Origin: Nitrospirota bacterium
GTDB lineage: Bacteria; Nitrospirota; UBA9217
DNA: 64,000 nt
Reading direction: 5' to 3'
Assembly (NCBI GenBank): GCA_963751455.1
Contig: CAVVUN010000015.1
Coordinates: forward strand, 64,001 to 128,000
The translations under genes were made by a program, and so were the position numbers. Shown piece after piece: positions 8,035-37,042 of this stretch; position 1 is the first letter of the stretch, and every line of letters starts with the position of its first letter. The notes beneath the pieces are model-generated. The model had not been told where the DNA came from. It worked only from the letters and a program-made list of their open reading frames with translations, and did not search any database.

Positions 8035-8156
8035 ACCACAGAGACACAGCCTGCACTCGCGCAGTGCACTCGTAGTCGCTGGCCGCAGGCGGAGACACAG
8101 AGAAAATCAAATTGGAAATTAAGCATTTTTCTCCGTGACCTCTGTGCCTCTGTGGT
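8035..8156. repeat. Periodic IR element, CACAGAGA family, containing a 43-bp insert
   Basis: ACCACAGAGACAC[insert]GGAGACACAGAG ... CTCCGTGACCTCTGTGCCTCTGTGGT. Confidence 0.75.
8048..8090. mobile_element. Small AGCCTGC...GCAGGC insertion element, copy 1
   Basis: Shares both ends with 33420-33554 and 37004-37042; removing it restores the host repeat period. Confidence 0.7.
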
Positions 8157-8230
8157 TAAACCCTATTTTTAGATTCTGTAATTTGATTTTTTGGAGATTT
8201 GATTTCTTTGTCTGATTTGGAGGATCGAAT

Positions 8231-9148
8231 ATGAAAGCACTGCTCGTTTGCGAATACCGGGATGGGAAACTGCTCGGTTCCACCTATGAACTTGCGACCT
8301 TTGCCGACAAGCTGGGCGCAGACAAGGCAATGGTCCTGATCGGAAAAGAGGCCGAAACCCCGAAGATCAACGCCAAAGTTTACCTGGCCGATGCCGCGAA
8401 ATACGGCGAATATAATCCAGACCTGCATAAAAAGATCGTGCTCGAAGCGGTCAAGAGGGAAAACGCGGACTGTATTGTCTTCTCCCACTCCTCCTATGGA
8501 TGGGACCTGGCGCCGCGGGTTGCCGCGGCCCTGAAGGCCGGCCAGATTTCCGAAATCACGGGCATCAACGAAGGAAAATTCGAAGTCGGACTGTGCAACG
8601 CCAAGCTGCGGCGGACCGTGATCCCGAACACGGGCAAGATGGTCCTAACGATCCAATCGGGCGCCTTCAATCCTGCCGGGGAGCCGCAGGGGAAGGCGGA
8701 GGTGGAAAAGATCGACCCGGCCGATGCTGTTTCGTCCGTCGAGTTCGTCGGGTATGAACCTGCCAGGGAAAAGGAAGTGGACCTGGCCCGGGCCGAGGTG
8801 ATTGTCAGCGCCGGGAGAGGCGTCGGCAAAAAAGAGAACGTGCAAACCATTGCCGCCCTGGCCAAGGCCCTCGGCGGCGAGTTGGGCGCGAGCCGGCCGG
8901 TTGTCGATGCAGGATGGGTCGAGCACAGCCGCCAGGTCGGGACCACGGGCCAGATCGTTGCCCCGAAACTCTACGTTGCGTGCGCGATTTCCGGGGCTAT
9001 TCAGCATATTGCAGGGATGAAGAACTCCGAGTTTGTCGTTGCCGTAAACAAGGATAAGGACGCCCCGATCGGCGAGGTCGCGGATGTGCTGGTAGTGGCT
9101 GATGTAATGCAGTTCGTTCCTGCCTTTATTGCAAAGCTCCAAAAATAA
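8231..9148 (+). CDS. etfA: Electron transfer flavoprotein alpha subunit
   Basis: VSAGRGVG, GASRPVVDAGW, QVGTTGQIVAPKLY, ISGAIQHIAGM, VNKDKDAPI. Confidence 0.95.
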   Translation: MKALLVCEYRDGKLLGSTYELATFADKLGADKAMVLIGKEAETPKINAKVYLADAAKYGEYNPDLHKKIVLEAVKRENADCIVFSHSSYGWDLAPRVAAALKAGQISEITGINEGKFEVGLCNAKLRRTVIPNTGKMVLTIQSGAFNPAGEPQGKAEVEKIDPADAVSSVEFVGYEPAREKEVDLARAEVIVSAGRGVGKKENVQTIAALAKALGGELGASRPVVDAGWVEHSRQVGTTGQIVAPKLYVACAISGAIQHIAGMKNSEFVVAVNKDKDAPIGEVADVLVVADVMQFVPAFIAKLQK

Positions 9149-9592
9149 TCCGGTCATTGCCGTGCTCTTATCCGGCGCCAGGTGCCCACCTGCCCACGGG
9201 CCCCGCCGATCTGTTCATTCGCCCCCTCGCCGTTCAAGCCGATATACGCATACGTCCGGGGATGATTGCCTCAGTACTCGAAAACAAGGTTGCAGCTTCG
9301 ATTACCGGGCAGGCAAGCTGTTCGACCACGAGCACCCGGAAGAGGACATCAAAAAAGCCCTCGCAAAACTTCCGAAAATATAAAAATTTTATCTGAAAGT
9401 GCTCCCTGCAGCTGCTGGCCGGGAGCACTCTTTTTTCGCCTCTCCCGCTGCTGCATCATGTCTTCTTTCGAACCGCCAAAGTAATATCAACCTCTTCCAT
9501 GCAGGCCCCCGGCGCCTTTGGTCGGATGATGTTACCCGCAGCATCCGATCGTCAGCCATGAAGGAGAAGGTAGCACGAAGCTCCTCCCTTAT

Positions 9593-9621
9593 TTGACAAT
9601 TTTTTCGGATCGATTGATAAT
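9593..9621 (+). promoter_or_regulatory. Putative sigma70 promoter
   Basis: TTGACA-17nt-GATAAT upstream of the AGGAGG RBS of 9647. Confidence 0.55.
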
Positions 9622-9646
9622 TGCTTTATAAGAAGGAGGTGCTTAT

Positions 9647-9880
9647 ATGCCGAAGCAAGAGAAAAAAAGCGAATCAGGGAAGCCCTCGGTAACAAGCATT
9701 ATGAAACATTTTCAGGGCATTGATTTCCCCGCAAGCAAACAGGATTTGATAAAGCACGCAGAAAAGAAGGGTGTAGACGATGCGGTCATGAACTTGCTTA
9801 ACGAAATGGCAGACCGCGAGTATAACAGCATTACCGATGTGATGAAAGAATACGGAAAAAAATACGAAAAAGCCGCATAA
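9647..9880 (+). CDS. DUF2795-like small protein
   Basis: GIDFPASKQDLIKHA...DREYNSITDV pattern; strong RBS. Confidence 0.75.
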   Translation: MPKQEKKSESGKPSVTSIMKHFQGIDFPASKQDLIKHAEKKGVDDAVMNLLNEMADREYNSITDVMKEYGKKYEKAA

Positions 9881-9889
9881 TAAAACGGA

Positions 9890-9918
9890 AAAAAGCCCCG
9901 GACGATTCGGGGCTTTTT
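9890..9918. terminator. Bidirectional intrinsic terminator
   Basis: AAAAAGCCCCG-GACGATT-CGGGGCTTTTT between convergent genes. Confidence 0.75.
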
Positions 9919-9953
9919 GTATATAGACGACGGAAACCGCAGCTTCGAACCTG

Positions 9954-10634
9954 TTATGTTTTTCCGCCCATCTTGACCATTTCAAGAGCATTGCATGCGA
10001 TAAGGACGTACCCTTCCGGTTCTTTAATAATTCCTTTCGTTGAGAGCAGCTTCATGCATTTCGAAACCGCCTCCCGGGAGGAGCCGATGCGGGCGGCAAG
10101 TTCCTTGTGCGTAACTTTTTCTGCTTTTAAATATCCCTTAACGGAAGGGTCCGCTTTTGCAGCATCCAGGAGCGACCGTATCAGCCTCTCGCCGACCTCA
10201 AGGAACGCAAGTGATTCTATCATGTCGTCGGCTTTTCTCAGTCGCTCCACGAGGGTCGCCATGAGCTCCACCGCAATCTTGGGTTCCTTGTACAAAAGCT
10301 CAAGGAAAACATCTTTGTGTAAAATGGACAGCTCCGTGTCCCCGTCCGCTATGATGGTCGCCGATCTCCCTTTACCGTCCAGAAGGCTGAGTTCTCCGAA
10401 GAAAGCGCCTTTTTCAAAATGGGCCAGCACAATCTCATCCCCTTCATCATCCTCAAGCACTGCCTTCAATGTTCCGGAATTTACGATATAAAGATCGGTG
10501 CTCAAGTCCGTTCTATGGAAGATAACGTCTCCCTTTTTGTAACGGCCGGTCCTGCAACGGGACGCGATTTCCTTTAGTTGCGCGCTCTTGAGCTGATCGA
10601 AAAGAGGAATGTTCTTTAGATATGAGATAAGCAT
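9954..10634 (-). CDS. Crp/Fnr family transcriptional regulator
   Basis: cNMP domain (FFGELSLLDGKGRSAT) and HTH (THKELAARIGSSREAVS); start placed at MLISYLKNIPLF. Confidence 0.9.
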   Translation of the reverse strand: MLISYLKNIPLFDQLKSAQLKEIASRCRTGRYKKGDVIFHRTDLSTDLYIVNSGTLKAVLEDDEGDEIVLAHFEKGAFFGELSLLDGKGRSATIIADGDTELSILHKDVFLELLYKEPKIAVELMATLVERLRKADDMIESLAFLEVGERLIRSLLDAAKADPSVKGYLKAEKVTHKELAARIGSSREAVSKCMKLLSTKGIIKEPEGYVLIACNALEMVKMGGKT

Positions 10635-10883
10635 GGATTTTCGGAGTATGAAATTGCTTGTTTCTCTATATGCAGCGAACCTTGTCCCGCTCGTTCGGGG
10701 CAACTACGACCAATTTTCCCGTCATTATTTCTATGGGCACTTAGGGAACGGCCCTAGGATAGCATCACCATGTACTAAAAGCAAGGAGTTTTGAACAATT
10801 ATTAGGGAAACAGGTGCGTTTTTCGACTGCGGCTTGCTATCCGGGTCTCATGCGGAACGAGAAATATGTGCCCTAAAAACGCC

Positions 10884-12488
10884 TTACCCTTGTGCGTTCT
10901 GCATTTCTCTCTTGAACTCGGAATTGAAATGAAACTTGATTTCGGGATTTGCTTCGATCATATTCCGGAGCACCCAATCCGACTCAGCCAGAAAGACGAT
11001 ATTGCCGTCCTTGTCCGTTGCGATGCGGTCCGATTTGAACCGGCAGAATTTTTCCATTTCAAGTTTGTCATCGGCAGTGATCCAGCACGCCTTGAAGACC
11101 TTCATTTCCTGGAAGCGGCATTTTGCGCCGTACTCATGTTCCAGCCGGTACTGAAGCACGTCGAACTGCAGCTGCCCGACCGTTCCTACTATCCTGCGGT
11201 TTCCCTGCTGCTGCGTAAACAGCTGTGCAACGCCTTCGTCCGTAAGCTGTTCGATGCCCTTCGCGAGCTGCTTCGATTTCGACGGGTCCAGGTTAACCAG
11301 TTCCTTGAACACCTCGGGTGAAAAAGTCGGCATTCCCTGGAACATCAGTTTCTCGCCTTCAGTCAGCGTATCGCCGATTTTGAAGTTTCCGGTATCGTAC
11401 AGGCCGATCACATCGCCGGGAAAGGCCTCATCAACAATGCTTTTTCTGGCCCCCAGGAAACTTGCGGGGCTGGTGAAGCGGATGTTCTTACCCGTGCGGA
11501 CATGGTGGAACATTTTGTTCCGTTCGAACCTGCCGGAGCAGACGCGAATAAAGGCTATTCGGTCCCGGTGGCGGGGGTCGAGGTTTGCGTGGATCTTGAA
11601 CACGAATCCCGTGAAATCCTTTTCGTCGGCGCTGACAACACGCCTGTCTGTTGGCCTGCCGCCCGGAATCGGAGCGATCTCCGTGAAGGTTTCGAGCAGC
11701 TCTTTTACGCCGAAGTTGTTGATGGCGCTGCCGAAGAACACCGGCGCAAGCTCGCCGCGGAGATATGCCTTGACATCAAAGGGGTCATGGGTGCCTGAAA
11801 TCAATGCCACGTCTTCCTTGAGCTGTGCGGCGTAATCACCGAGCTGCTGGTCGAGCACCGGGTCGTCAAGGCCCCTGATTGCGAGCACGTCGTCCGAAAC
11901 AGTCACGCCTCCCGGACGGAAGAGATAAAGACTGTTGTTGTAGAGGTTGTAGACACCTTTGAAGGAGGTGCCCATGCTGATCGGCCAGGACAGGGGCTGA
12001 ACCTTGATCGCGAGTTTGGTTTCAAGCTCGTCCAGGAGCTCAAAGGGATTTTTGCCCTCACGGTCGAGCTTGTTGACGAAGATGATGACCGGTGTATTTC
12101 GCATCCTGCAGACCTGCATCAGTTTCTCTGTCTGCTCTTCGACCCCTTTTACGCAGTCGACGACAAGAATGACGCTGTCGACGGCAGTAAGCGTTCGATA
12201 GGTGTCCTCGGCAAAGTCCTTGTGCCCGGGCGTGTCCAGGAGGTTGATCTTGAGGCCGTTGTAATCGAAGCCCATGACAGAGGTGGCAACGGAAATGCCG
12301 CGCTGGCGCTCTATATCCATAAAATCGGAAGCAGTGCTTTTTCTGATCTTGTTCGACTTGACCGCGCCGGCCACCTGGATGGCGCCGCCAAAGAGGAGGA
12401 ACTTTTCGGTCAGGGTCGTCTTGCCCGCGTCCGGGTGGCTGATGATCGCAAAGGTCCGCCGTTTCTGTATTTCGTCACTGTAGTCCAT
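10884..12488 (-). CDS. prfC: Peptide chain release factor 3
   Basis: [54 protein letters not shown]. Confidence 0.97.
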
Positions 12489-12597
12489 AATCAGATCGTC
12501 CTTAAACAAGCCTCATAAATTAACAAGTGAAGGCAGAAATGTCAAGGTTTTTCGGGCTGGGAGAATCTGCCTTGGAAAAATCGGGCAGCGGGATTCT

Positions 12598-13368
12598 CTA
12601 CGCATTGAACACTCTGCTGATCTCGTCGTGAGCGCGCACGGCGAGTTCCTTTCTTGACGCCTGCTCGCCAGGCTCGATAATCTTCAGCGCGGTTGCCTCG
12701 ACTCTAACGGATTTCAAAGACAGAAACTTCGGAAAATGTTTCAGGAAGCTTATTCCGCCATAATAAAAAATCGCGCTACTGTTGCGGCCTGAAACCGGCT
12801 CGCCGTTTACTGCGGTATATCGCAGGCAGAGAGGTAAAATATCGGCTTTTGCAGAGATAGCGGCATCGAACAGCGAATTCTTAAAAGGCCGCACCCCGGT
12901 CCCATCGGAGGTCGTACCTTCGGGAAAAAGCGCGACCGTAAATCCGTCTTCAAGAACGCGGGATATTTCAGAGATTTCGTTTTTCAGGCCTGACGGCTTT
13001 CTCCGTTCGATGAAAAGGCTGCCGCCGAACCGGGCGAGCGTTCCGAGCAGCGCCGTCTGCTTCAGCTCGATTGATGTAATGAAGACCGACGGCATGAGCG
13101 AAGCGATGACGAGCACGTCTACGTATGATAGATGGTTAGCGACGATAAGACGCGGTTTGCGGTTCGTCTCCAGGCGGGGTCCCTGCTTCAACTCCACCCG
13201 CACGCCGAATAAAGCGAGCGCAACTTTGCAGAAGAAAGAAGTGTTTCGCGTTCGCATCTTTCTCCGAAAGGCGCTGCCTGCGGGCAGAACCGTGATTACG
13301 GTCGAAGCAAAAATATAGCAGAGGAGAATAAAGACAATGCCGGCCTTCTTGATAAATTTTGTCGCCAT
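12598..13368 (-). CDS. 1-acyl-sn-glycerol-3-phosphate / lysophospholipid acyltransferase (PlsC-like)
   Basis: NHLSYVD and FPEGTTS motifs. Confidence 0.88.
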   Translation of the reverse strand: MATKFIKKAGIVFILLCYIFASTVITVLPAGSAFRRKMRTRNTSFFCKVALALFGVRVELKQGPRLETNRKPRLIVANHLSYVDVLVIASLMPSVFITSIELKQTALLGTLARFGGSLFIERRKPSGLKNEISEISRVLEDGFTVALFPEGTTSDGTGVRPFKNSLFDAAISAKADILPLCLRYTAVNGEPVSGRNSSAIFYYGGISFLKHFPKFLSLKSVRVEATALKIIEPGEQASRKELAVRAHDEISRVFNA

Positions 13369-13527
13369 TGTTTGCGGTTTTCACGACCTCCACGGTTGCA
13401 TCATGATTTCCAGCAATGATTATCTCACAGTGACTGTCTTATTTCAATCGGAACGGCCGGTTACTTCTTCTCTTTCCGGACAGCACGCATGCGTTCTGAA
13501 CTCAGATGACGTATGAAATCAACGGGG

Positions 13528-13556
13528 TTTACAGAAAAGTGAACAAAGGCTATACT
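13528..13556 (+). promoter_or_regulatory. Putative sigma70 promoter
   Basis: TTTACA-17nt-TATACT upstream of 13609. Confidence 0.5.
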
Positions 13557-13608
13557 TGAATTAGGAACACAAGCGAAAGTAACACGATACGAGGAGGCAT
13601 TTAGGAGT

Positions 13609-13914
13609 ATGATTGTTGAATTCAGCATCGTTCCTGTCGGTACGGGTGTAAGCGTAAGCCCGCAGGTAGCGCGGGTCCTTAAAATTGTAGTGGAAAGCGG
13701 TGTTCCTTACAAGGCGAACCCCATGGGGACCGTTCTGGAAGGCGAGTGGGAGACGGTTATGAAGATTATCCAAAAATGCCATGCCGAAGTAATGAAGGAC
13801 GCGGACCGGGCGATTACGTCGATAAAGATCGATGACCGCAAAGGAAAAAAAGAGTGGATGGAAGGGAAAATAGTTTCTGTAGAGCAGAAACTCGGGATGA
13901 AGCTTAACAAATGA
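13609..13914 (+). CDS. MTH1187 / thiamine-binding family protein
   Basis: EFSIVPVGTGVSVS, NPMGTVLEGEW, TSIKIDDR. Confidence 0.88.
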   Translation: MIVEFSIVPVGTGVSVSPQVARVLKIVVESGVPYKANPMGTVLEGEWETVMKIIQKCHAEVMKDADRAITSIKIDDRKGKKEWMEGKIVSVEQKLGMKLNK

Positions 13915-13930
13915 ACTAAAGGAGAGGCTG

Positions 13931-14152
13931 ATGGCCAATAAACTGGAAAGTGAACTCAGGGAGCGGGTGAAGATCCAGGAGAAGGCGCTTCAGAATCTCG
14001 CGGACACCCTGAGAAAGCGGGAAGTTATGCTCGATGATAAGATGCAGGACGTACTCGAAGAGCTTAAGGCCCTCAAAATGTTTCTCGCCAGAAGCGACCC
14101 GGATTTCAAAAAAGAATTTCCGGAGATTCGGAAAAAAGTGAAGGCTGCATGA
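13931..14152 (+). CDS. Small coiled-coil hypothetical protein
   Basis: Good RBS (AAGGAGAGG), operon position, charged heptad-like sequence. Confidence 0.65.
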   Translation: MANKLESELRERVKIQEKALQNLADTLRKREVMLDDKMQDVLEELKALKMFLARSDPDFKKEFPEIRKKVKAA

Positions 14153-14253
14153 TTACGATGTTTAATCCAAGGTCCTGTCGCAACTATTCCGCCTGTCATA
14201 ACAATATCCGAGAATAAAAAACCTCGGCGCTTCATTATTTTAAATCGAGGAGG

Positions 14254-14784
14254 ATGATTATGAAGATGGCAGCAAAAGGATCAAGGGGCTACAAACTGTC
14301 ATACAAAAAAAAGAGCGCTACAACCGACCCGTATCTCCCCAGAGGGGCAAGCCGGAAGATTACCGTATGCGGATCCTGTCATGCCGTTTACACCAACAAA
14401 CGGTGGAGTTTTGATTCCAATCTGTACGAGAATTCCGTCAAGGACCCGGCTACAACAGTCTCATTGTGCCCGGCAGATCAGAAGATCCGTGACGATTTCC
14501 CCGGCGGGCTCGTAACGGTCAAGGGAGGATTTTTCGTTGAGCACAGGAACGACTTGTTGAACCTAATTAAGAACGAGGAAGAGCGTGCTCAGGGATTTAA
14601 TCCGCTCGAACGCGTGATGTATGTGAGAGAGAACGGATCGGGTACAATCGTCATCGCGACTACGAACGAGAAAATGGCACAGCGGCTCGGAAGGGCGATC
14701 AAAAAGGCGTTTCACGGCGAGGTAACGTACAACTGGTCGCATGACACGAAACTGGTCAGAGTGGAGTGCGAGATGGCGGCGTAG
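14254..14784 (+). CDS. BCAM0308-like protein (Zn-ribbon-containing)
   Basis: DPY...VCGSCHAVY...RW...CPA..KIRDDFPGG...NPLER pattern. Confidence 0.75.
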   Translation: MIMKMAAKGSRGYKLSYKKKSATTDPYLPRGASRKITVCGSCHAVYTNKRWSFDSNLYENSVKDPATTVSLCPADQKIRDDFPGGLVTVKGGFFVEHRNDLLNLIKNEEERAQGFNPLERVMYVRENGSGTIVIATTNEKMAQRLGRAIKKAFHGEVTYNWSHDTKLVRVECEMAA

Positions 14785-14810
14785 AGGCGATTCAAAGAGG
14801 CAAAGAGGAA

Positions 14811-14842
14811 AGGGCTGATTTCGAAAGGAGTCGGCCTTTTTT
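14811..14842 (+). terminator. Intrinsic terminator
   Basis: GGGCTGATTTC-GAAA-GGAGTCGGCC followed by a T tract. Confidence 0.6.
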
Positions 14843-14858
14843 GTTGTAGATTAGAGTT

Positions 14859-14976
14859 GGACAAAAATCAGGACAAAAACATGGACAAAAATTGAGACAA
14901 ATTATTCTGCATAATAAAAATAAATATATTATTTCAATAAGTTATAGGACATCAAATAAGGACAAAAATCAAGACA
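14859..14976. repeat. 12-bp-period direct repeats (GGACAAAAA core) around an IHF-like site
   Basis: GGACAAAAATCA GGACAAAAACAT GGACAAAAATTG AGACAAA ... TTTCAATAAGTTA ... GGACATCAAATAA GGACAAAAATCA AGACA. Confidence 0.65.
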
Positions 14977-15129
14977 TTTAGGCTGCTATTTCTCAGTCAT
15001 ATGTGGATCTATCGCACATTTATTCGAAAATTTGAGTTAAAAACGGTAATAATTGTAATTAAGCTTTTGGCTTTTTGCACAAATTACGCAATAATTAACT
15101 TATAATTTAAAATTTATGGGGGTTTAACT

Positions 15130-16250
15130 ATGCTGATTGAATTCAGCGTAACAAATTACCGGTCCATACGCGAGAAACAAACGCTCAGCATGGCCGCCAG
15201 CAAATATTATGGCGAGCTGAAAGACCAGAATTGTTTTGACAGCGGCATTCCTGGCTTGCCTCAGCTTGTGCGGTCAGCAGTAATCTACGGCCCAAATGCG
15301 TCGGGCAAAAGTAATCTCCTTGTAGCGCTCTCGTTGATGCAGGATATGGTTCGGTCGTCGGCAAAAGAGATCCAGGCAGGCGAAAAACTTGACATCTATT
15401 CTTTTCAGCTTGACCGGGCAAGCAAGGACAAAGAGAGTGAGTTTGATCGTTGCGGCCGCCGTCCGGGATAGGCAATCAGCCATTCGCGCATCACCCGGGA
15501 TCTGTTGACGGCAAAACCGTACCGATAGCGGACCTCGCCTTCAATAGCGAACAGCTGATGCCGGTGTTCAACTGGTTCCAGAAACGTCTTCGCGTACTGT
15601 CGCCGAACTTCACCCTTGATCCCGGATACACAGCGAGCGCCTGCGAAACCGAAAAGGGAAAAAACAAAGTGATTAAATTTCTGAGCGCTGCAGACTTAAG
15701 CATCGCCGATATTCGCATTGTCAAAAGAAAATTTACACCCGACGAACTGCCAAAAGACTTGCCTGCGGAGCTCAAGGAACATCTGCGCAAAGAGATGGAG
15801 GGCAAAGAGGTAAGAGATATAAAATTCATGCATAAGAACACAGAAACAGGGGAACTTGTTCCCTTCGATCCCCGAGACGAATCGGACGGCACAAAGAACC
15901 TGTTCGCCTTCGCCGGCCCCTGGCTCGATGTGATAGGCCATGATAAGGTGCTTTTCGTCGATGAGATCGATTCCAGCCTGCACCCGCTAATCGTGCACGA
16001 GCTCGTACGCCTCATGCATCAGTCCGGCGGCAAGGCACAACTCGTATTCACCACCCATGATACAACGATCCTGAGCCAAAATATCATGCGCCGGGACCAG
16101 GTATGGTTCATCGAAAAGAATGATGCACAGGCTTCGAGACTGTATCCATTATCCGATTTCAAGGCCCGGGAGAAGGAGGCACTGGAGCGAGGATATCTAC
16201 GCGGACGTTACGGGGCCATACCGTTTATCCAAGAGACGCTCAAGTTATGA
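15130..16250 (+). pseudogene. AAA_21 (RloA/AbiEii-like) ATPase, split with internal disruption
   Basis: N-part with GPNASGKS (15130-~15449); C-part with ESDGT, LFVDEIDSSLHP, FTTHD, YLRGRYGAIP; frame break at the junction. Confidence 0.8.
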
Positions 16251-16425
16251 GAAAGCAACAGAAACGGATAACGGCCTCGCTGGAACGATTAAGGGCATTT
16301 CGGAAAATAGCAATTTCCAAGTTGAAGCTCGGCGATCCCTCGTTCATCCCAAAATGTTCATATTCGGGGCTGTAAAATACTGTTAACCTTTTGGGTTATT
16401 ATTTTATTGACATTATGGATGTTCC

Positions 16426-16764
16426 ATGTTAATGTCTTTCAAGAGCGAGAAGTTCGAAAAAGAATGTAATGACTTGAAGCTCCTCACGCGAGTGTGGGGG
16501 GCTGAGCAGGCCCGGCTGATCGCCCGCCGGCTGACGGAGTTTGCCGCGGCGGAGAATCTCGAAACCATGCGGACCTTGCCGCAGGCGCGCGCGCACGAAT
16601 TAAAGGGAAACCGCGAAGAGCAAATATCGCTCGACGTGAAGCACCCGTACCGTTTGATCGCCATCCCCGACTACGACACGCCGCCGCGCAGGAAAGACGG
16701 CGGTCTTGACTGGCAAAAAATAACAAAAATAAAAATACTGGAAGTGACGGACACTCATGAGTAA
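16426..16764 (+). CDS. HigB/RelE-like toxin (killer protein)
   Basis: RAHELKGNREEQISLDVKHPYRLI pattern; overlaps the antitoxin gene; palindrome TAACCTTTTGGGTTA upstream at ~16384-16398. Confidence 0.8.
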   Translation: MLMSFKSEKFEKECNDLKLLTRVWGAEQARLIARRLTEFAAAENLETMRTLPQARAHELKGNREEQISLDVKHPYRLIAIPDYDTPPRRKDGGLDWQKITKIKILEVTDTHE

Positions 16765-26501: not shown

Positions 26502-28048
26502 AACTAGGTGATTTACTATGTACACTCAAGAAACCGCCGACAGCTTCGGCCGCGGACCGGGAGGTGCTCGATATCACCCATGATTCACGAAAGGTTAAAC
26601 CCGGTTCTCTCTTCGTGGCCGTGCGAGGTTTCAACTCGGACGGCCATCTATTTGTTCCTCAGGCGGTAGAGCGGGGAGCGGTCGGCGTCGTGGCCGAGCA
26701 TGAGAGCGGCGCGGCTGAATCGGTCCCCGAGATCATCGTTGAAGATTCGCGTCGGGCGCTTGCGCTTCTCGCAAACCGGTTCTACGGCTATCCCTCGACG
26801 AAGCTTTCGCTCATCGGCGTTACCGGCACAAACGGCAAGACCACCACAACGTACCTCGTAAAATCGATCGTGCAGGCGGCCGGGCGGCTTGCGGGGCTGA
26901 TCGGGACCATCGATTACCGCATCGGGGACACGGTGTACCCGTCCCCCAATACCACGCCCGAGTCGCTGGAGCTTCAGCGTTTTTTGTCCGAGGCGGTCGG
27001 GCTTGGAGCCGAGTACTGCGTGATGGAAGTTTCGTCGCATGCCCTGGAACTCGGCAGAACGCGGGGATGTGAATTCGCGGTTGCCGCTTTTACGAACCTG
27101 ACCCAGGACCATCTGGATTTTCACGGGACAATGGACGCCTATTTCGGTTCAAAGCTCCGCCTTTTTTCAGGGCTTTCGTCGAAGGGCCGGGCTGTAGTCA
27201 ATCTCGATGACAAACGGGCGGCGGAGATCATCAACGCAACCCCGGCTTCCGTCCTCACCACCGGAATGACCAGCCGCGCCGATGTGCATCCGGACGGAGG
27301 CATTCAGCATGGCATCGAAGGCCTTCGTTTTAACGTGTCGACACCCGTCGGCATGCTGTCGGTGCAATCGCCGCTGGTGGGCCGGCATAATGTTTACAAC
27401 ATGCTGACCGCAATCGGGATCGGCATTGCCCTCGGTTTTCCGGCGGACGCGATCGCGCTCGGCATCAGGGAAATGAAGGCCGTTCCCGGCCGGATGGAAA
27501 AAGTGGACGAGGGTCAGGGTTTCGGGGTCGTGGTGGACTATGCACATACCGAAGACGCGCTCCAGCGGCTGCTTCAGGCAGCCCGCGAGATCACCGCTTC
27601 CAGAATCATCACGGTCTTCGGCTGCGGCGGCGACCGTGACCGCACAAAGCGTCCGAAAATGGGCGCCGCCGCGCTGAACGGGAGCGACATTGTCATTGTG
27701 ACGTCCGACAATCCGAGGTCCGAGGACGCGATGAGCATTATCCGGGAAATCGAGGTCGGTATGGCCAGCGATATGAAAGCGGCGTCAACCGGTCATGCAG
27801 CGAAGCATCGTGAGAAACCGTATTTTGTTATCGCTGACCGTCGCAGCGCCATAGCGGAGGCTGTTCGCATCGCGAAACCAGGGGATGTGGTGGTGCTTGC
27901 GGGAAAAGGTCATGAGGATTACCAGATAATCGGGAGCTTAAAGCTCCATTTTGACGACCGGGAAGTGGCGCGGGAAGAAATACGGAGACGCACTGCGGAA
28001 TGCGGAGTTCCCTCAACCGGTCCCTCTCCCGGGAGGGAGAGGGGCTAG
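26498..28048 (+). CDS. murE: UDP-MurNAc-tripeptide synthetase MurE
   Basis: GVTGTNGKTT, MEVSSH, DYAHT, FGCGGDRD, DNPR (meso-DAP type), AGKGHE. Confidence 0.96.
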   Translation: MKLGDLLCTLKKPPTASAADREVLDITHDSRKVKPGSLFVAVRGFNSDGHLFVPQAVERGAVGVVAEHESGAAESVPEIIVEDSRRALALLANRFYGYPSTKLSLIGVTGTNGKTTTTYLVKSIVQAAGRLAGLIGTIDYRIGDTVYPSPNTTPESLELQRFLSEAVGLGAEYCVMEVSSHALELGRTRGCEFAVAAFTNLTQDHLDFHGTMDAYFGSKLRLFSGLSSKGRAVVNLDDKRAAEIINATPASVLTTGMTSRADVHPDGGIQHGIEGLRFNVSTPVGMLSVQSPLVGRHNVYNMLTAIGIGIALGFPADAIALGIREMKAVPGRMEKVDEGQGFGVVVDYAHTEDALQRLLQAAREITASRIITVFGCGGDRDRTKRPKMGAAALNGSDIVIVTSDNPRSEDAMSIIREIEVGMASDMKAASTGHAAKHREKPYFVIADRRSAIAEAVRIAKPGDVVVLAGKGHEDYQIIGSLKLHFDDREVAREEIRRRTAECGVPSTGPSPGRERG

Positions 28049-28199
28049 TGGACACTCTGCACTCGCGTAGACACACTCGTCATCGCTGGGTGCAGGCAAG
28101 GATAATTCTATCTCGGATTGCGCATTGCGGAGTAGAACCTGGAAAGGCGGCATCGAAGCCTTTTCATAATCCGCATTCCGAAATTCGAAATCCGAAATT
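27993..28199. repeat. Composite repeat region: 7-mer IR arms, CCCTCTCCC/GGGAGAGGG palindrome, degenerate GCAGGC insert
   Basis: CTGCGGAATGCGGAGT; CCCTCTCCCGGGAGGGAGAGGG; CTGCACTCGCG...CGCTGGGTGCAGGC (28054-28097); CGGATTGCGCATTGCGGAGT...ATCCGCATTCCGAAATTCGAAATCCGAAATT. Confidence 0.65.
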
Positions 28200-28202
28200 G
28201 AT

Positions 28203-29570: not shown

Positions 29571-30649
29571 TGCTGTATCATCTGCTTTATCCGCTTCGAA
29601 ATGTATTCAGCGGCTTCAACGTTTTCAAGTACATAACCTTTCGGAGCGCGGGTGCGGTGCTGACGGCGCTCCTCGTGACGTTCCTGCTCGGTAAAATGAT
29701 GATTGCCTGGCTCAGAAGGCTCAAGGTAGGCCAGCACGTGCGCAACGACGGCCCGCAGACCCATTTATCAAAACAGGGCACGCCGACCATGGGCGGCATT
29801 CTCATTATCACAGCGCTCGCCGTGTCGGTGCTTCTCTGGTCCGATCTTACTAATAAATACGTGTGGGTCGTGCTCTTCGCTACGCTTGCCTTCGGCGCCA
29901 TAGGATTCTGGGATGATTATCTGAAGGTCGTGAAGAAGCGGTCCAAGGGGCTGAGCGCCAAACAGAAATTCGGACTCCAGATTCTGGCAGCCGTTCTGAT
30001 CGCCGTTTTTCTGTATCATCCCGCCGACCGTTACAGTACGCACCTGTCAGTGCCGTTCATGAAGCAGCTCTTCATTAATCTCGGCTGGTTCTACATTCCG
30101 TTTGTGGCCGTCGTTGTTATCGGCTCATCGAATGCAGTGAACCTCACGGATGGTCTCGACGGTCTGGCCATCGGCCTTGTGGGAATTGCGTCAATGGCAA
30201 ACGCGGTGATCGTGTATCTCGGCGGAAACCGGGTAATCGCCAATTACCTGAAGATCCTGTACATTCCGGGCAGCGGAGAGCTGGTCATTTTTTGCGGCGC
30301 CATGCTCGGCGCCAGCCTCGGTTTTCTCTGGTATAATGCGCACCCCGCGGAGGTGTTTATGGGCGATGTCGGGTCCCTTTCGCTCGGCGGGGCGCTCGGC
30401 ACGATAGCCGTGGTCACGAAGCACGAGCTCATCCTCGTTATCGTGGGCGGAATTTTCGTGATCGAAACAGTCTCCGTCGCGCTGCAGGTGGCCTCGTACA
30501 AACTCACGGGCAAGCGCATCTTCAGGATGGCGCCCATCCACCATCATTTTGAACAGATCGGCTGGCCCGAGTCAAAGGTGATCGTGCGGTTCTGGATCAT
30601 AGGTATTATCCTGGCGCTGGTGTCGCTGAGTTCGTTAAAGTTGAGATGA
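29570..30649 (+). CDS. mraY: Phospho-MurNAc-pentapeptide transferase MraY
   Basis: [38 protein letters not shown]. Confidence 0.97.
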
Positions 30650-30660
30650 AATGCATTTGG

Positions 30661-30787
30661 CCGCAGATTGCGCAGATTTAACGCAGATTAAGAAAATAGA
30701 GAAAACGTCTAAATGGCAGAATTTAATAACGGCCTAATTAAAAAAAATTCTTGAAATTAAAATCTGTGAAATCTGCGTAATCTGCGG
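30661..30787. repeat. Periodic IR element, CGCAGATT family
   Basis: CCGCAGATTGCGCAGATTTAACGCAGATT ... AATCTGTGAAATCTGCGTAATCTGCGG. Confidence 0.8.
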
Positions 30788-30816
30788 ATCAAGGAGTTAA
30801 CGTTTTTGGAGGCAAG

Positions 30817-32154
30817 GTGAAACCGAACTTTAAAGGCAAGCGGGTGACGGTCGTCGGTATGGCTCGGAGCGGCATAGGCGCCGCACGGGCGCTCCACGCC
30901 CTCGGCGCCCGTGTAACTATCACCGAAAAAAAACCTGTTGATCAGCTGCAGGAGCAGATAAAAGCGCTGGGCAGCGGTGACATCCTCGTCGAAGCGGGAG
31001 GCCACCCTGAGCGCATTTTCACGCAAGCCGACCTGATCGTGCTCTCTCCCGGAGTTCCGAAGATACCGCAGGTTCTGACCGCCAGCCGGCACGGCGTAAA
31101 AGTCATCAGCGAACTCGAGCTTGCCTGGCTTCTGTCAAAGTCTCCGTATATCGGCATTACCGGCACGAACGGCAAATCTACGGTCACAACGCTCACCGGG
31201 CTCATGCTGGAGCGGGCAAAAAAGAAGGTGCTTGTAGCGGGGAACATCGGCAACGCGCTTACCGAGCAACCGCGCCTGTTGACCGGGCAGGACTGGATCG
31301 TGGCGGAGCTCTCGAGCTTTCAACTCGAGGACATCGAGACCTTCAGGCCGCGCGTGGCAGCGATCCTGAATGTCACGCAGGACCATCTTGACCGGTACCA
31401 TGACATTTCGGAATACGCCGCAGCCAAGGCGCGGGTTTGCATGAACCAGAGGAAGGAAGATTTTCTCTTGTTGAATTTCGATGATCCGCTGGTAAAGCCC
31501 ATGGCGCTGAGGGTGGGGGCGACAGTCATTCCTTTTTCCCGCATGCACCGGTTCAACCCGGGCGCCTGCGTGCTCGATGGTTACCTGCTCTATAACGGAA
31601 AGAGAATCATTCGCGCGGATGAAATAAAAATTAAGGGTGTGCATAACCTTGAAAACGCATTGGCCGCGGCTGCCTTGTCGCTTGCCGCAGGGGCCGATGC
31701 GGAATCGGTTGCCGCTGTGCTCAGGGAATTCCCGGGTCTCGAACACCGGCTTGAGTTTGTGCGCGAAAAGGACGGGGTAGCCTATATAAACGATTCAAAG
31801 GGTACGAACGTCGGCGCTGTGGTTAAGTCCGTAGAAGGCTTCACGCAGCCGGTCATCCTCATCGCCGGCGGGCTTGACAAGGGCAGCGACTTCAGTCCCC
31901 TCTTCGACTTGTTCAAGAAGAAAGTGAAGCTCCTGATCCTGATCGGCAAGGCCGCGGACAAAATGATGACAGCACTGGGTGCATCTACCGAGACGGTTCT
32001 CATGAGGACGCTTCAGGACGCGGTGCAGTTTGCTTCGTCGCGGGCTTCTCAGGGGGACGTTGTGCTTCTTTCGCCTGCCTGCGCGAGCTTTGACATGTTC
32101 AAAGACTTCGAGGACCGGGGGAGGCAGTTCAAAGAAGCGGTGCGCGCGCTCTAG
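30817..32154 (+). CDS. murD: UDP-MurNAc-Ala:D-Glu ligase MurD
   Basis: GITGTNGKST, ELSSFQL, DHLDRY, NDSKGTN, LLSPACASFDMF. Confidence 0.97.
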   Translation: MKPNFKGKRVTVVGMARSGIGAARALHALGARVTITEKKPVDQLQEQIKALGSGDILVEAGGHPERIFTQADLIVLSPGVPKIPQVLTASRHGVKVISELELAWLLSKSPYIGITGTNGKSTVTTLTGLMLERAKKKVLVAGNIGNALTEQPRLLTGQDWIVAELSSFQLEDIETFRPRVAAILNVTQDHLDRYHDISEYAAAKARVCMNQRKEDFLLLNFDDPLVKPMALRVGATVIPFSRMHRFNPGACVLDGYLLYNGKRIIRADEIKIKGVHNLENALAAAALSLAAGADAESVAAVLREFPGLEHRLEFVREKDGVAYINDSKGTNVGAVVKSVEGFTQPVILIAGGLDKGSDFSPLFDLFKKKVKLLILIGKAADKMMTALGASTETVLMRTLQDAVQFASSRASQGDVVLLSPACASFDMFKDFEDRGRQFKEAVRAL

Positions 32155-32176
32155 CGCAAGTGCGGAGTGGGAAGTA

Positions 32177-32261
32177 TTCGTTTGTTTGGTTTGTCTGGTT
32201 AATTTGGTTTGTCGGGTTAGAACCAAACAAACTAAACAAGCACAATAACCAAGTAAACCGA
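32177..32261. repeat. 9-mer periodic IR element (TTGGTTTGT / AACCAAACA)
   Basis: TTCGTTTGT TTGGTTTGT CTGGTTAAT TTGGTTTGT ... AACCAAACA AACTAAACA ... AACCGAA. Confidence 0.75.
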
Positions 32262-32287
32262 AATGGAATGTGGAGTTCAGAGTGCAA

Positions 32288-33394
32288 ATGAGACTGGACC
32301 ACAAGGGACACTATGACGCGACACTTCTCTTCACGATCCTGTCGCTGCTCGTAATCAGCGTCGTCATGGTGTACAGTTCAAGCAGCGTCGTAGCGCTCAC
32401 CGCCTATGATGACCCGGCTTTTTTCATGAAGCGCCAACTTCTGTGGGCGGTGCTCGGGCTCGGCGCCATGGCCGTGAGCATGCGCATAGACCATAGGGTG
32501 CTTGCCGACCAGCGGCTCGTGATCGCGCTCGTTGTCGTCTGCCTGCTGCTGCTCGGGATGACCCTCATTCCCGGAGTCGGCAGAATGGCGAACGGGTCAA
32601 GGCGCTGGCTTCGCCTGGGGATCCTTTCATTTCAGCCCTCGGAATTAGCAAAGCTCGGGCTTGTGGTCTATATGAGCTACTTCATAGCGAAAAAGGGAGA
32701 GCGCATTCGTGACTTCATGAACGGACTGGTGCCGGCTTACGTGGTTTCGGCCGTCTTCCTCGGAGTCGTTATACTTCAGCCTGATTTCGGCGCCGGCATG
32801 ACGCTTGCCGCGGTCGTAGGAATCATGCTGTTCGCAGGAGGCGCGAACCTGCTGCATCTCGCGGGGACAGCTCTTGCGGCGCTGCCAATCGTTTTTTTTG
32901 CTGTTGCGGGAAGCGCCTACCGGCTCCGCAGAATATTCGCGTTCCTCGACCCGTGGGGGGACCCGCATGGCTCGGGGCATCAGATCATCCAGTCGTTTCT
33001 GGCTTTCGGCAGCGGCGGTCTTCTCGGCCGCGGGCTTGGCGAAGGCAGGCAGAAGCTCCTGTTTTTGCCGGAACGGCATTCCGACTTTATCTACGCAGTG
33101 ATCGGCGAGGAACTGGGCCTTCTCGGTGCGCTTTCGGTGCTGGCGCTTTTTCTGATCCTTTTATGGCGCGGCGTTCGCACTGCACTGGCGAGCGGCGAGA
33201 CGTTCAGCCGAATGCTAGCACTCGGCATAACGCTCCTCGCCTGCATGCAAGGTATGATCAATATGGCTGTTGTGACCGGACTTTTGCCGACCAAGGGCAT
33301 TGCACTGCCGCTGGTCAGTTACGGCGGCTCATCGCTGATGGTCACGATGGCCGCGCTGGGCGTGCTGCTGAATATTTCGCGGGAAACGGCGTGA
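32288..33394 (+). CDS. ftsW: SEDS peptidoglycan polymerase FtsW
   Basis: NGSRRWL, FQPSELAK, QPDFG, LPERHSDFI, LPLVSYGGSS. Confidence 0.96.
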   Translation: MRLDHKGHYDATLLFTILSLLVISVVMVYSSSSVVALTAYDDPAFFMKRQLLWAVLGLGAMAVSMRIDHRVLADQRLVIALVVVCLLLLGMTLIPGVGRMANGSRRWLRLGILSFQPSELAKLGLVVYMSYFIAKKGERIRDFMNGLVPAYVVSAVFLGVVILQPDFGAGMTLAAVVGIMLFAGGANLLHLAGTALAALPIVFFAVAGSAYRLRRIFAFLDPWGDPHGSGHQIIQSFLAFGSGGLLGRGLGEGRQKLLFLPERHSDFIYAVIGEELGLLGALSVLALFLILLWRGVRTALASGETFSRMLALGITLLACMQGMINMAVVTGLLPTKGIALPLVSYGGSSLMVTMAALGVLLNISRETA

Positions 33395-33419
33395 AAAGAT
33401 ATTGCGGAGTGCGGATTGC

Positions 33420-33554
33420 AGCCTGCACTCGCGCGAGCACTGCTTAGACTCATTGTCGTACCATCTCGCTGAGTAAGGCTTAGACCCTTTGTCGACCATC
33501 GCACTGAGAAACGTGTGACGGGAATCAAGGACCTCATAAGCGCTGGCCGCAGGC
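33420..33554. mobile_element. AGCCTGC...GCAGGC insertion element, long 135-bp copy, inside a 7-mer array
   Basis: GCGGATTGC|AGCCTGCACTCGCGC...CATAAGCGCTGGCCGCAGGC|GGATTGCGG; internal ~36-nt tandem duplication. Confidence 0.7.
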
Positions 33555-33602
33555 GGATTGCGGAATGAAAAACGAATTCAAAGAAGCAAAATCGGAAACA
33601 TC

Positions 33603-34679
33603 ATGAAGATTATTATCGCCGCCGGAGGAACGGGAGGGCATTTGTACCCGGGAATCGCCATAGCGCGCGAACTGCTTCGGGCACCGGGAAATGAAGTGCT
33701 TTTCGTGGGCACTCAGCAGGGAATCGAGGCAAAGGTGCTGCCTAAGGAGGCGCTTCCGGTTCGTTTCATAACGGTCGGAAAGATCAAGGGCATGAACATC
33801 GGATCGATAACAAAGACGCTGGTTACGCTGCCGCGAAGCATTGTTCAGTCGGTCAGCCTGCTGCGCGAAACACGGCCGGACGCGGTCATAGGCGTCGGCG
33901 GCTACTCGTCGGGTCCCGTAGCGCTTGCGGCGCTGCTGCGGAGAACACCGCTTTTCATTGTTGAGCCCAATTCATATGCCGGGCTCGCAAACAGGGTGCT
34001 GGGGAAGGTCGCGAACAGGATAATCCTCTGCTTTCCGGGCACTGACCGTCATAATTTTTTTCCCAAAAAGAAGACGATAACCATGGGGCCGCTGGTACGA
34101 CAAGGAATCGAGCTCGGCAACCGCGATAAAGCGTTCAAGGACTTCGACCTCGATCCCGGGAAGTTTACAGTCTTTATCATGGGAGGTAGCGGAGGGGCCC
34201 ATGCCATTAACCTGGCGATGAAGCAGGCGGCCGCGCTCCTGACGGACCGCCCGGATCTGCAGGTCCTTCACCAGACCGGAGAAATGGATGCGGCCGATAT
34301 AAGGGCCGGGTACCGCACGGCACGCGTGAAGGCCACAGTGCTTCCCTTCATCCACGATATGGCGGGCGCGTATGCGGCAGCGGACCTCGTCGTCTCCCGG
34401 TCGGGCGCCACCACAGTGGCGGAGCTCGCGGTCTGCGGCAAGCGTGCGGTGCTTGTTCCCTATCCTTTTGCAGCGGACAATCATCAGGAATATAATGCGA
34501 GGACCCTTGCGGCGAGGGGCGCGGCCGAAGTAATTGTACAAAAGGAGCTGACTCCGAAAAGACTGGCGGAATTGATTCTGAAATATGCGGGGGCCCGTGC
34601 GGAAGCTGCGGCTCCGCAGGCAAATACAGCAGCGAAGGAGATCGCAGAGATCTGCAAGAACTATGTTCAAGAAAATTAA
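33603..34679 (+). CDS. murG: MurG glycosyltransferase
   Basis: [30 protein letters not shown]. Confidence 0.96.
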
Positions 34680-36045
34680 ACACATTCATTTCGTCGGTAT
34701 CGGCGGCATCGGCATGAGCGGCATCGCCGAGGTGCTGCTGAATCTGGGATATAAAGTTTCCGGGTCGGACATGAGGGAGTCGGAGATTACCGAGCGGCTC
34801 AAAAAGCTGGGTGCTGATATTTTCATCGGCCACCGGGCAGAGAACATCGCTGAACCGCATGTCGTTGTGATCTCGTCGGCGGTGAAGGCTGACAATCTCG
34901 AAGTTATTGCTGCGCGGGAAAAGCAGATTCCGGTCATCCCGCGCGCCGAGATGCTCGCAGAGCTGATGCGGCTCAAATACGGCGTGGCGATCGCGGGCGC
35001 CCACGGGAAAACAACGACGACATCGATGGTCGCGACGGTCCTTGCGGCCGGCGGCATCGACCCAACCGTGGTTATCGGCGGAAAGCTGAACAGCATCGGC
35101 ACGAACGCAAAGCTTGGGCAGGGCGAGTTCCTGGTGGCGGAGGCGGACGAGAGCGACGGGAGTTTTCTGAAGCTTTCGCCTACAATAGCGGTAGTAACGA
35201 CGATCGACGCCGAGCATCTGGATTATTACAAGGACATTGACGAGATCAAGAGCGCGTTTCTGGCTTTTATAAATAAGGTGCCTTTCTACGGCGTTTCTGT
35301 GCTGTGCCTGGACCAGCCCCATATTCAATCGCTCATTCCTTCGCTGCAGAAGCGGTACCAGACATACGGCATGACCTCGCAGGCCGATTACCAGGCAAAA
35401 GAAGTTTCCCTGAAGCCGCTCGGCTCCCGGTTCAAAGTGATTCATCACGACCAGGATCTCGGGTGGTTCGAGCTCTCGGTGCCCGGTGTTCATAATATCA
35501 ATAACAGTCTGGCGGCAATAGCGGTGGCACGGGAACTGGATATGGATGTCGAGGTTATCAGGAAAGCCATCAAGGAGTTCAGCGGGGTGCAGCGGCGTTT
35601 CCAGATCAAGGGAGAGGCAAAGGGGATCATCGTGGTGGACGATTACGGGCATCATCCCACGGAGGTGAAGGCGACGCTTGCCGCAGCGGCATCGGGCCTC
35701 GAACGCCGGGTAGTGGTTGTGTTCCAGCCTCACCGGTACACCAGGACACAGCATCTTCTTGAGGAATTCTTTACCGCCTTTAATCAGGCGGACAAGCTTA
35801 TCATGATGGACATCTACGCCGCAGGAGAAAAACCGATACCGGGCGTCTCCGGAGAGGCGCTGTACGAGGGAATAAAAAAACACGGACATCGGGACGTGAC
35901 CTACATTGCAGACAAGGAAAAGATCGCAGACCACATGGCTGAGGTTCTCAGGCGCGGCGATTTGATGATCACGCTGGGAGCGGGCGACGTTTGGAAAATC
36001 GGCGAGCAGGTACTGGAAAGGCTGAATTCGCAGCAGAAAGCGTAG
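34663..36045 (+). CDS. murC: UDP-MurNAc:L-Ala ligase MurC
   Basis: [46 protein letters not shown]. Confidence 0.97.
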
Positions 36046-36079
36046 TGTCGGAGTAAAAAAACTGAATACGGAGCATACC

Positions 36080-36988
36080 ATGCAAATCGCAAACTTTAAG
36101 GGAGAGATTAAAAAGAACGAGCCGTTGAGCATGCACACCTCATTTGCGGTCGGCGGTCCTGCCGATATTGTGGCGTATCCGACCGACCGGGAGGACCTGG
36201 TCTCGCTTTTAAAAGAGATCAAAAAGCGCGGAATGAAATATTTCATTCTGGGCGGCGGCACCAACCTGCTTGTCCGCGACGGCGGTTTTCGCGGGGCTGT
36301 GATAAAGCTCGAGCGCCTTGCTGCGGTCAGGATCGAACGTGAATATCGGTCGGTAGGCGGCGCCTTCGCCGCTGTGTATGCGCAGGCGGGTGTGCCCCTG
36401 CCGAAGCTCCATTTTTTCGCGGCCGAACAGGGGCTTACCGGGCTCGAATTCGCAACAGGCATACCGGGAACCGTAGGCGGGGCCATCTGCATGAACGCGG
36501 GAACCGCGGCGGGAGAGACAGGTGACGTTATCGAATCAGTTACGCTGCTGTCTCCTGAAGGAGAGGTCATCACCAGACTGAGGGATGAGATGTCCTTCGG
36601 TTATCGCAGTTCTCGTATTCCGGACGGGCATCTGGTTGTCGATGCCATATTCATTCTGCGGCGGGACGATAAGGAGAAAATCAAGGCGCGTATCAGGGAG
36701 CTGCTGGAAAAGCGGAAGCAGGGCCAGCCGCTGAATTTCCCGAATGCGGGCTCCATCTTCAAAAATCCGCAGGAGGTGCCCGCCGGCCGGCTTATCGAGA
36801 CTGCGAAGCTGAAGGGAAAAAGGGTCGGAGACGCTGAGGTTTCCGACAAGCATGCAAACTTCATCGTAAATACGGGAAAGGCGACAGCCAGGGACGTGCT
36901 CGCGCTCATGGAGATTGTAAAGCAGACCGTGCTTGATGTGCATGGTGTGCGGCTCGAACCGGAAATAAAAATAATCGGAGAAGACTAA
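36080..36988 (+). CDS. murB: UDP-N-acetylenolpyruvoylglucosamine reductase MurB
   Basis: LGGGTNLL, GIPGTVGGA, NAGSIFKNP, KHANFIVN, LEPE. Confidence 0.96.
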   Translation: MQIANFKGEIKKNEPLSMHTSFAVGGPADIVAYPTDREDLVSLLKEIKKRGMKYFILGGGTNLLVRDGGFRGAVIKLERLAAVRIEREYRSVGGAFAAVYAQAGVPLPKLHFFAAEQGLTGLEFATGIPGTVGGAICMNAGTAAGETGDVIESVTLLSPEGEVITRLRDEMSFGYRSSRIPDGHLVVDAIFILRRDDKEKIKARIRELLEKRKQGQPLNFPNAGSIFKNPQEVPAGRLIETAKLKGKRVGDAEVSDKHANFIVNTGKATARDVLALMEIVKQTVLDVHGVRLEPEIKIIGED

Positions 36989-37003
36989 CTGATTGCGGAT
37001 TGC

Positions 37004-37042
37004 AGCCTGCACTCGCGCTTCGCATAAGCGCTGGCCGCAGGC
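37004..37042. mobile_element. AGCCTGC...GCAGGC insertion element, 39-bp copy, inside a 7-mer array
   Basis: GATTGCGGATTGC|AGCCTGCACTCGCGCTTCGCATAAGCGCTGGCCGCAGGC|GGAATGTGGATTGCGGAATG. Confidence 0.72.

Follow-up and report, generated by a model that had tools for sequence, protein, structure and literature searches.

We analyzed a 64,000-nucleotide (nt) stretch of DNA (the window) from a Nitrospirota bacterium of the lineage UBA9217 (GCA_963751455.1, contig CAVVUN010000015.1, positions 64,001 to 128,000). It is part of a 5.7-Mb genome in 15 contigs, labelled G000 below. In the window, spacers between etfB and etfA, ftsW and murG, and murB and ddl, as well as the DNA behind murE, contain short repeats into which a hairpin element, here called element A, is inserted (Table 1). 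A sequence-only reading had reported four copies of this element, and all four were found at its places, each boundary being moved by one nucleotide to the left. In-silico removal of the three clean copies regenerated the period of the host repeat, an 8-mer at 8047 and 7-mers at 33419 and 37003, just as that reading had claimed. The fourth copy, which it gave as 28054-28097 and called degenerate, turned out to be a full-length member of the family, complete apart from one substitution in the terminal stem and embedded in a composite of heptamer and C-run/G-run hairpin repeats. The strand assigned to each copy is the one on which the covariation-supported hairpin described below folds better (5' CCTG tail, then stem).

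Element A is widespread in this genome and patchy outside it. A loose form of its left motif had the right motif at most 40 nt away at 118 of 220 places, compared with 0 of 34 in the reversed genome. Bracket matching yielded 152 copies; 116 of these measure 30-49 bp, and the other 36, which hold nested units, 84-339 bp. The union of this search with a structured parse gave 180 sites. In total, 231 structured copies were collected (142 from the own genome and 89 from others), while the control gave 0. A covariance model recovered at least 148 copies (148 of the 150 candidates scored) and revealed A in 18 of 36 relatives of the same family and in 0 of 24 genomes of other families; the exact-pattern search found it in 16 of the 36. 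The distribution is patchy even within genera, since G018 contains at least 105 copies and G027 and G034 none; G025 has 76 copies and G014 has 35. Among the loci with the A pattern, 76 of the 80 matches listed (of at least 106) came from Nitrospirota. Five stretches from three viral contigs also matched, one of these matches being chance-like.

The boundaries of A are exact. It starts with the YR that stands ahead of S-CCTG and ends with CARG, and the next C belongs to the target. Excision from YR to CARG regenerated a 16-mer present elsewhere in the genome in 46 of 152 copies, compared with 3.1 ± 1.6 for shuffled flanks. Shifts of the register at the same length restored 37 (the register of the sequence-only reading) and 27 (the opposite shift), and other excision lengths at most 5, save those with one extra right-hand base (11 and 10). 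Because a single excision length restores genomic sequence, insertion occurs with no target duplication, a point on which the earlier reading was right. The ambiguity of the register is resolved by T-start copies whose target still has its C (25 of 231). Empty and filled sites can also be compared directly: contig C15 contains three tandem units, 97.5% identical, two of which are filled by A and one is empty, and at locus L313 an empty and a filled paralogue share 95.3% identity.

The target of A is defined by little more than one base. The base after the element is C in 221 of 231 copies with one extra base tolerated. C is also next in 81 of 86 copies from other genomes and viral contigs, and in metagenome loci it follows directly in 114 of 123. 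The two variants of the right end differ in this respect: C is next in 292 of 300 copies ending with CAGG, versus 25 of 52 ending with CAAG, where a further 23 have one extra base first. In a host repeat where C stands in just 33 of 211 empty sites, it was present in 4/4 filled ones. The wider consensus, (Y)(R)^C(G)(R), is weak and only its C is near-invariant, so the target C^GGA proposed earlier is too narrow (CGG follows the cut in approximately 105 of 371 copies). The proposed core of C or GC does not hold either, as G precedes the cut in 59 of 371 copies and the T-start copies share no base with the target.

The host sequences are likewise more diverse than the single repeat family first supposed. 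The 180 sites group into 65 site classes (177 for random sites), which include 7-, 8- and 9-mer runs, several hairpin repeats, a second element (B, see below) and three positions within A itself. The flanks are neither random nor all co-duplicated, 18 of the 65 classes having at least three members, and empty paralogues exist. In these, C occupies the insertion position in 405 of 547 cases. It is the majority empty base in 49 of the 59 sites with paralogues (180 sites examined); at the remaining ten, filled copies mostly have C and empties A or T. A MITE-like repeat (miniature inverted-repeat transposable element) of about 200 bp, present at about 16 sites in the genome (e.g., C15:234802, C1:312274), hosts element A at two positions; its empties have the base A where the filled copies have C. 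The target C is thus either selected or written by insertion.

Empty sites were found as near-identical paralogues within the genome, one 86% pair excepted, and not as clean orthologous sites in relatives: eight congeneric comparisons, made among relatives at 70-88% identity (G000 has no congener in the genome set), all showed the host repeat wholly replaced or missing. The murB-ddl spacer (window 36989-37117; loci L052-L062) illustrates this, as other repeat types, a short spacer or none were found in 11 of 11 relatives. In almost every relative it holds a short-period repeat of its own kind that begins at the stop codon, and in G010 the spacer is absent. The same wholesale replacement was seen in congeneric pairs at other A-bearing spacers. 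Host repeats turn over faster than genes diverge. Taken together, it is very probable that A is a real, precisely inserted and repeatedly mobile element.

The 231 copies share one hairpin. The eight column pairs that rank highest in corrected mutual information all correspond to Watson-Crick pairs in a single structure. It begins with a terminal stem of 5 bp, followed by a conserved mismatch between pyrimidines; then come two base pairs, a bulge and another two pairs, and after these a tandem mismatch and a segment of four pairs that leads to a variable loop. The final four bases of A form an unpaired tail. In an alignment of 60 sequences, two-sided changes were revealed in 8 of 13 pairs, and pairing held in 94.5% of the alignment cells, compared with 88.8% in shuffles and at most 50.6% with slid partners, although the copies are related and cells are not independent events. 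The fold is thus kept by compensatory changes, together with its conserved mismatches. On the reverse strand the mismatches read A.A, tandem G.A/A.G and G.T, and this strand gives the more stable covariation fold in 219 of 231 copies with RNA parameters and in 195 of 231 with DNA parameters. An alternative helix favoured by energy minimisation was rejected, none of its pairs being among the top covarying ones. Likeness to kink-turns and to integron attC sites was weighed and rejected because geometry and core sequence differ. The variable loop showed no guide-like pairing with the target: mutual information between element and target reached at most 0.16 bits and had no complementary pattern. 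Rfam gave no match to A; at E<=1 there was none in six loci, and the sole match in the window was a tmRNA gene at 51845-52199.

A search with the terminal stem only revealed 27 short copies, compared with 1 in the control; 24 measure exactly 31 nt, and two of the 27 are deletion forms of A. This sister family, called E, has the ends of A, is followed by C in 27 of 27 cases and, when excised, restores genomic sequence most often (13 of 27) at the register found for A. It occurs in 24 of 64 family genomes and also inserts into A. In 329 of 330 A and E copies the first and last bases of the tail are complementary (C-G in 313, T-A in 16), with the tail itself left free. The common tails on the folded strand, CCTG, CTTG and TTTA, belong to the type II DNA tetraloops, in which an L1-L4 pair closes the loop, as described from nuclear magnetic resonance data in the work cited (PMC9975016). 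Such a tail would close the terminal stem as a tetraloop only with the ends of the element joined, and this is the main reason why we infer a single-stranded DNA dumbbell.

Elements of this kind nest in one another. The 135-bp copy in the window consists of a 42-bp A and a 93-bp insert, which is made up of a 34-bp piece of element B plus a B variant of 59 bp. Element B is 58 nt long and its right motif occurs 106 times in the genome (control 1), 34 of them inside A. Excision of B follows a single diagonal (about 20 of 85), and the reverse strand gives the better fold in 67 of 85. It also forms head-to-tail arrays of 3-6 units of 58-59 bp between ordinary genes, one of them in the ribosomal protein operon after rplN. 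Inspection of the translations at ten B array loci revealed only housekeeping or unrelated genes and no enzyme that could be linked to B. A further type of mini-element, a 24-bp palindromic insert, was noticed within a 9-mer run at G000:C12:49754.

Table 1. Element A, its host repeats and companion elements (window positions, unless a contig of genome G000 is named)
Feature	Position	Strand	Setting
Element A, 43 bp	8047..8089	-	spacer etfB/etfA (genes by Pfam); target CA^CGG
Host 8-mer run, split by A at CA^CGG	8036..8103	+	from sequence; inverted arm at 8130-8155
Element A, 44 bp, full length	28053..28096	-	directly 3' of murE stop; target GA^CAA
Element A with nested insert, 135 bp	33419..33553	-	spacer ftsW/murG; A arms 33419-33439 and 33533-33553 (42 bp jointly)
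Element B, left 34 bp	33440..33473	-	inserted in A at GCA^CTC; right part missing here, present in a 158-bp copy elsewhere in the genome
B-type variant, complete, 59 bp	33474..33532	-	nested within the loop of B
Host ATTGCGG-type heptamer run, split by A at TG^CGG	33401..33566	+	from sequence
Element A, 39 bp, short inner stem	37003..37041	-	spacer murB/ddl
Host ATTGCGG-type heptamer run, split by A at TG^CGG	36992..37060	+	spacer compared in 11 relatives
Element B arrays	C14:28104-28518; C15:1354270-1354527; C15:1572030-1572319; C15:1002591-1002709
Family E, 24 sites	e.g., C3:7720-7750, C15:1671322-1671352		none in the window

Some copies of A lie in genes. Of 31 copies inside crude open reading frames (ORFs), most fall in ORFs that look spurious. 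Six Pfam-supported genes contain A in frame, namely a CbiX-CbiC fusion, three tetrapyrrole methylases, a radical SAM protein and a deacetylase, and the lengths of A across these genes are 42, 42, 42, 42, 45 and 84 bp. A loop motif of the CbiH type has 79 residues here versus 33-60 in 12 related proteins; the corresponding DNA of five relatives contains other repeats or none, and no A. The cobalamin operon (L073, G000:C9:85000-102000) contains many in-frame heptamer runs and at least seven A copies, and one of its CbiH loops holds two copies in opposite orientation. It should be mentioned that the murE frame in the window enters a C-run/G-run hairpin and heptamers (28011-28048) ahead of its stop, so that repeat DNA encodes the C-terminus of murE. 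The window also contains a minus-strand ORF of 2049 aa (53918-60067) with 171-bp tandem repeats at 58185-58924.

To account for these features, it can be hypothesized, with a rough probability of 45%, that A is a non-autonomous hairpin of 39-46 bases which moves as a folded circle of single-stranded DNA, with HUH-like cutting and joining at G^Y supplied in trans by a putative enzyme. One strand of A would serve as the substrate. Joining of its two ends would turn the 4-nt tail (CCTG, CTTG or TTTA) into a tetraloop on the terminal 5-bp stem and so produce the dumbbell. Within the folded strand, the cut would fall on the 3' side of G in the donor as well as in the target. The terminal stem and tail would be the recognition signal, because the interior varies from 31 to 339 bp. 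Repeats may be favoured as targets because their DNA is exposed as single strands or hairpins and because inserts are tolerated there. Head-to-tail units, found for A at locus L177 and for B in the arrays, speak for this scheme. A bolder version, which we consider rather unlikely as a whole, would make A and the 31-nt family E the smallest mobile DNAs of circular form. They would be dumbbells, covalently closed through a type II YYYR tetraloop at the junction, and the enzyme inserting them before a C would belong to none of the IS110, Y1 and reverse-transcriptase families. The signal would reside in the ends alone, and any folded cargo between them, of which up to 339 bp was seen, would be carried along.

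Several observations weigh against the folded-circle scheme. The extra base at the right junction of 23 of the 52 CAAG-ended copies and the 10 of 59 hosts in which the commonest empty base differs from the filled base make insertion less exact than usual HUH chemistry. The cut in A would abut the foot of the hairpin, while in the REP (repetitive extragenic palindrome) and IS200 systems it lies away from the foot. Unconstrained folding mostly picks another register and shows no strand preference, and folding as a circle yields the form with the tail as a loop in just 31 of 330 copies; the energy model has no terms for these special tetraloops. The T-A tails may descend from few events, and the head-to-tail junction of A at L177 is the only one found and lies at a target resembling the start of the element. 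The orientation of A relative to replication is weakly biased (98:68, p=0.024; 95:71, p=0.07).

The remaining difficulty is the enzyme. Profile searches revealed 33 Y1, four IS110 and six reverse transcriptase (RT) genes in the genome, of which 1/33, 0/4 and 1/6, respectively, lie within 1 kb of A (random expectation 5%). No recurring mobilome neighbour was found among 609 ORFs beside 263 A copies, and no ORF-bearing, enzyme-carrying full-length copy with A ends exists in the genome, so the full-length copies enclosing a DEDD or Y1 transposase that the sequence-only reading had proposed to look for are absent from it. Its view of A as a non-autonomous element inserted in repeats stands. Two kinds of candidates were rejected. 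Unpaired A ends resolved into degenerate or nested copies, and the 6 of 339 long end-pairs that restored a junction were explained by distinct copies on either side of housekeeping genes, by nesting of one copy or by coincidence. Among relatives, many of whose genomes are fragmented and in which Y1 was counted as one class, Y1 genes occur in 14 of 18 A-positive versus 17 of 18 A-negative genomes, IS110 genes in 6 versus 10 and RT genes in 7 versus 13. One relative, G032 (one contig, 98% complete), has seven A copies and no match to any of the three, although these copies could be relics. Of the earlier suggestion of an HUH/Y1 enzyme, the chemistry remains the best analogy, but none of the 33 Y1 genes in this genome is flanked by A and Y1 was not found in 4 of the 18 A-positive relatives.

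In the sole case of a Y1 gene within 1 kb, A sits as an insert in a broken Y1 copy. An RT gene follows 351 bp downstream of the copy at G000:C2:443057-443098, which seems to be situated within what we take to be group II intron RNA. PF04986 (Y2 transposase, IS91) had no match in the genome, and the control genomes likewise had none. Among 75 families of multi-copy small proteins, the mobility genes were just Y1 and ordinary IS types, and four families were GxxExxY-like by eye. An expanded Y1 family of about 290 aa, similar to RAYT (REP-associated tyrosine transposase), was observed at C1:546104, C15:1291667, C1:184811 and about 15 further positions; its genes have short TAGGGTCA/TGACCCTA terminal inverted repeats, and several are inserted in each other.

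It could also be that A has no dedicated mobility gene and is moved instead by a housekeeping function of the host, such as replication restart, repair or an unrecognised core enzyme, that picks up short folded DNA where a strand is nicked. None of the three mobility families follows A, which persists in the one-contig genome without all three, and orthologous spacers and the CbiH loop are filled by differing repeat types in each relative, as if one route served many families. However, the strict ends, the ^C rule and the compensatory evolution point to a specific recogniser, and a core enzyme alone does not explain why 18 family members have A and 18 lack it, with such differences even inside single genera, although loss or non-arrival of the element could. 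We regard this possibility as unlikely.

Quite unlikely, too, is a route through RNA, in which a structured A transcript would be reverse-transcribed onto a nick or break in the repeat, by template jumping of a group II intron RT or similar. It predicts the lack of duplication and occasional extra bases at one junction, such as those of the 23 CAAG copies. Wobbles of the G.U type and tandem G.A pairs suit RNA, the strand asymmetry is greater with RNA parameters, and the genome has six RT genes, one with an A just upstream. On the other hand, RT genes are less frequent in A-positive than in A-negative relatives and were not found in G018, G025 and G014, despite their 105 or more, 76 and 35 A copies. 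Moreover, the orientation of A relative to its neighbouring genes is not clearly biased (43 versus 30), Rfam gave no match, and the ends are exact apart from the extra bases.

Alternatively, a few old insertions of A could have spread mostly with their host repeats by recombination or gene conversion. This would agree with the fast turnover of these repeats and with site classes of 8, 7, 4 and 3 members that each carry a single A subtype. Nevertheless, the 65 site classes, 18 with at least three members, mean that the number of independent events was high at the least, subtypes are mixed in the largest class (23 members), single filled units stand among near-identical empty ones, and the strict compensatory changes imply continuing selection on the fold. 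Hitch-hiking accounts for part of the copy number of A and not for the family, for which it is an improbable explanation. Finally, the sequence-only suggestion that A is a MITE of IS110/IS1111, recombined at a short core under the guidance of a bridge RNA, is largely refuted: in spite of the missing target duplication, the four IS110 matches in the genome and the targeting of REP repeats by IS110 elements in the cited account (PMC12288879), A has no shared dinucleotide core (T-start copies share not even C) and 65 site classes instead of a long conserved REP-like target as in ISPpu9, IS110 genes were found in only 6 of 18 A-positive relatives, no cognate DEDD recombinase has A ends, and the nearest A is more than 10 kb from any IS110 gene.

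Among known systems, A appears closest in kind to the small dispersed repeats (SDRs) of cyanobacteria and, inside genes, to the Rickettsia palindromic elements (RPEs). The SDRs of Nostocaceae are reportedly very short hairpin repeats of 21-27 nt (Elhai and colleagues, 2008, Genome Res 18:1484), and to our knowledge have no enzyme assigned to them. Like SDRs, A is shorter than 100 nt, dispersed and hairpin-forming, occupies a precise position in other repeats and has empty sites. In a comparison by description, it differs in its length of 39-46 nt, its occurrence in Nitrospirota, its one-base rule over many hosts versus one octamer, and its nesting in itself and hosting of other elements. SDR5 is described as inserting between bases 3 and 4 of the octamer HIP1 (PMC4390886). 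RPEs (PMC3733652, PMC3184786) are likewise hairpin repeats that lie in frame in housekeeping genes; their length is about 105-146 bp, whereas A is 42-45 bp in genes, mostly non-coding, and lies within pre-existing short-period repeats.

With REP, BIME and REPIN sequences, as presented in the cited sources, A shares a hairpin of the 20-65-nt range, a tetranucleotide at the 5' foot, stem irregularities, a strand-specific fold, intergenic clustering and occasional in-frame copies (PMC8266576, PMC6006769, PMC3733652), and TnpA-REP is described as recognising a 5' tetranucleotide and an irregular, strand-specific stem (PMC8266576). Unlike REPs in these accounts, A has the foot CCTG/CTTG/TTTA and not GTAG (or GTGG/CGTC), would be cut at G^Y and not C^T on the folded strand, and occurs as single units with exact ends rather than in inverted pairs; nor was any REPtron, i.e., a Y1 gene flanked by A, found in this genome. 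The lack of duplication, the recognition of a single-strand hairpin and the circular intermediate, the latter two being inferred for A, recall IS200/IS605 as outlined in PMC6006769, in contrast to which A has one hairpin instead of separate left and right ones, no conserved 4-5-nt target, no guide-target covariation and no transposase. ISPpu9 and ISPpu10 also enter other repeats without duplication, but their conserved AG or CT core, long conserved target and bridge RNA, as reported in PMC12288879, were not seen for A. Classical MITEs, with their terminal inverted repeats and target duplication, differ from A, which has no target duplication and has a 4-nt unpaired tail at one end. A search of the literature, exclusive of supplements, revealed no description of the A family; what is new is the end architecture common to different sizes, together with the fold defined by covariation, the clue from the tetraloops and the negative profile for enzymes.

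The way in which bacterial genomes come to be populated by repeats of 20-45 bases has been an open question since REPs and SDRs were described. Element A offers a sharp handle on it, with exact ends, a one-base rule, a covariation-defined fold, two size classes, and 18 carriers versus 18 non-carriers in one family. These features make the putative 31/43-nt dumbbell intermediate and its enzyme directly testable. If true, an enzyme that pastes short folded DNA before an accessible C without duplication would represent a new recombination chemistry and a possible tool. The A family also writes new loops into enzymes.

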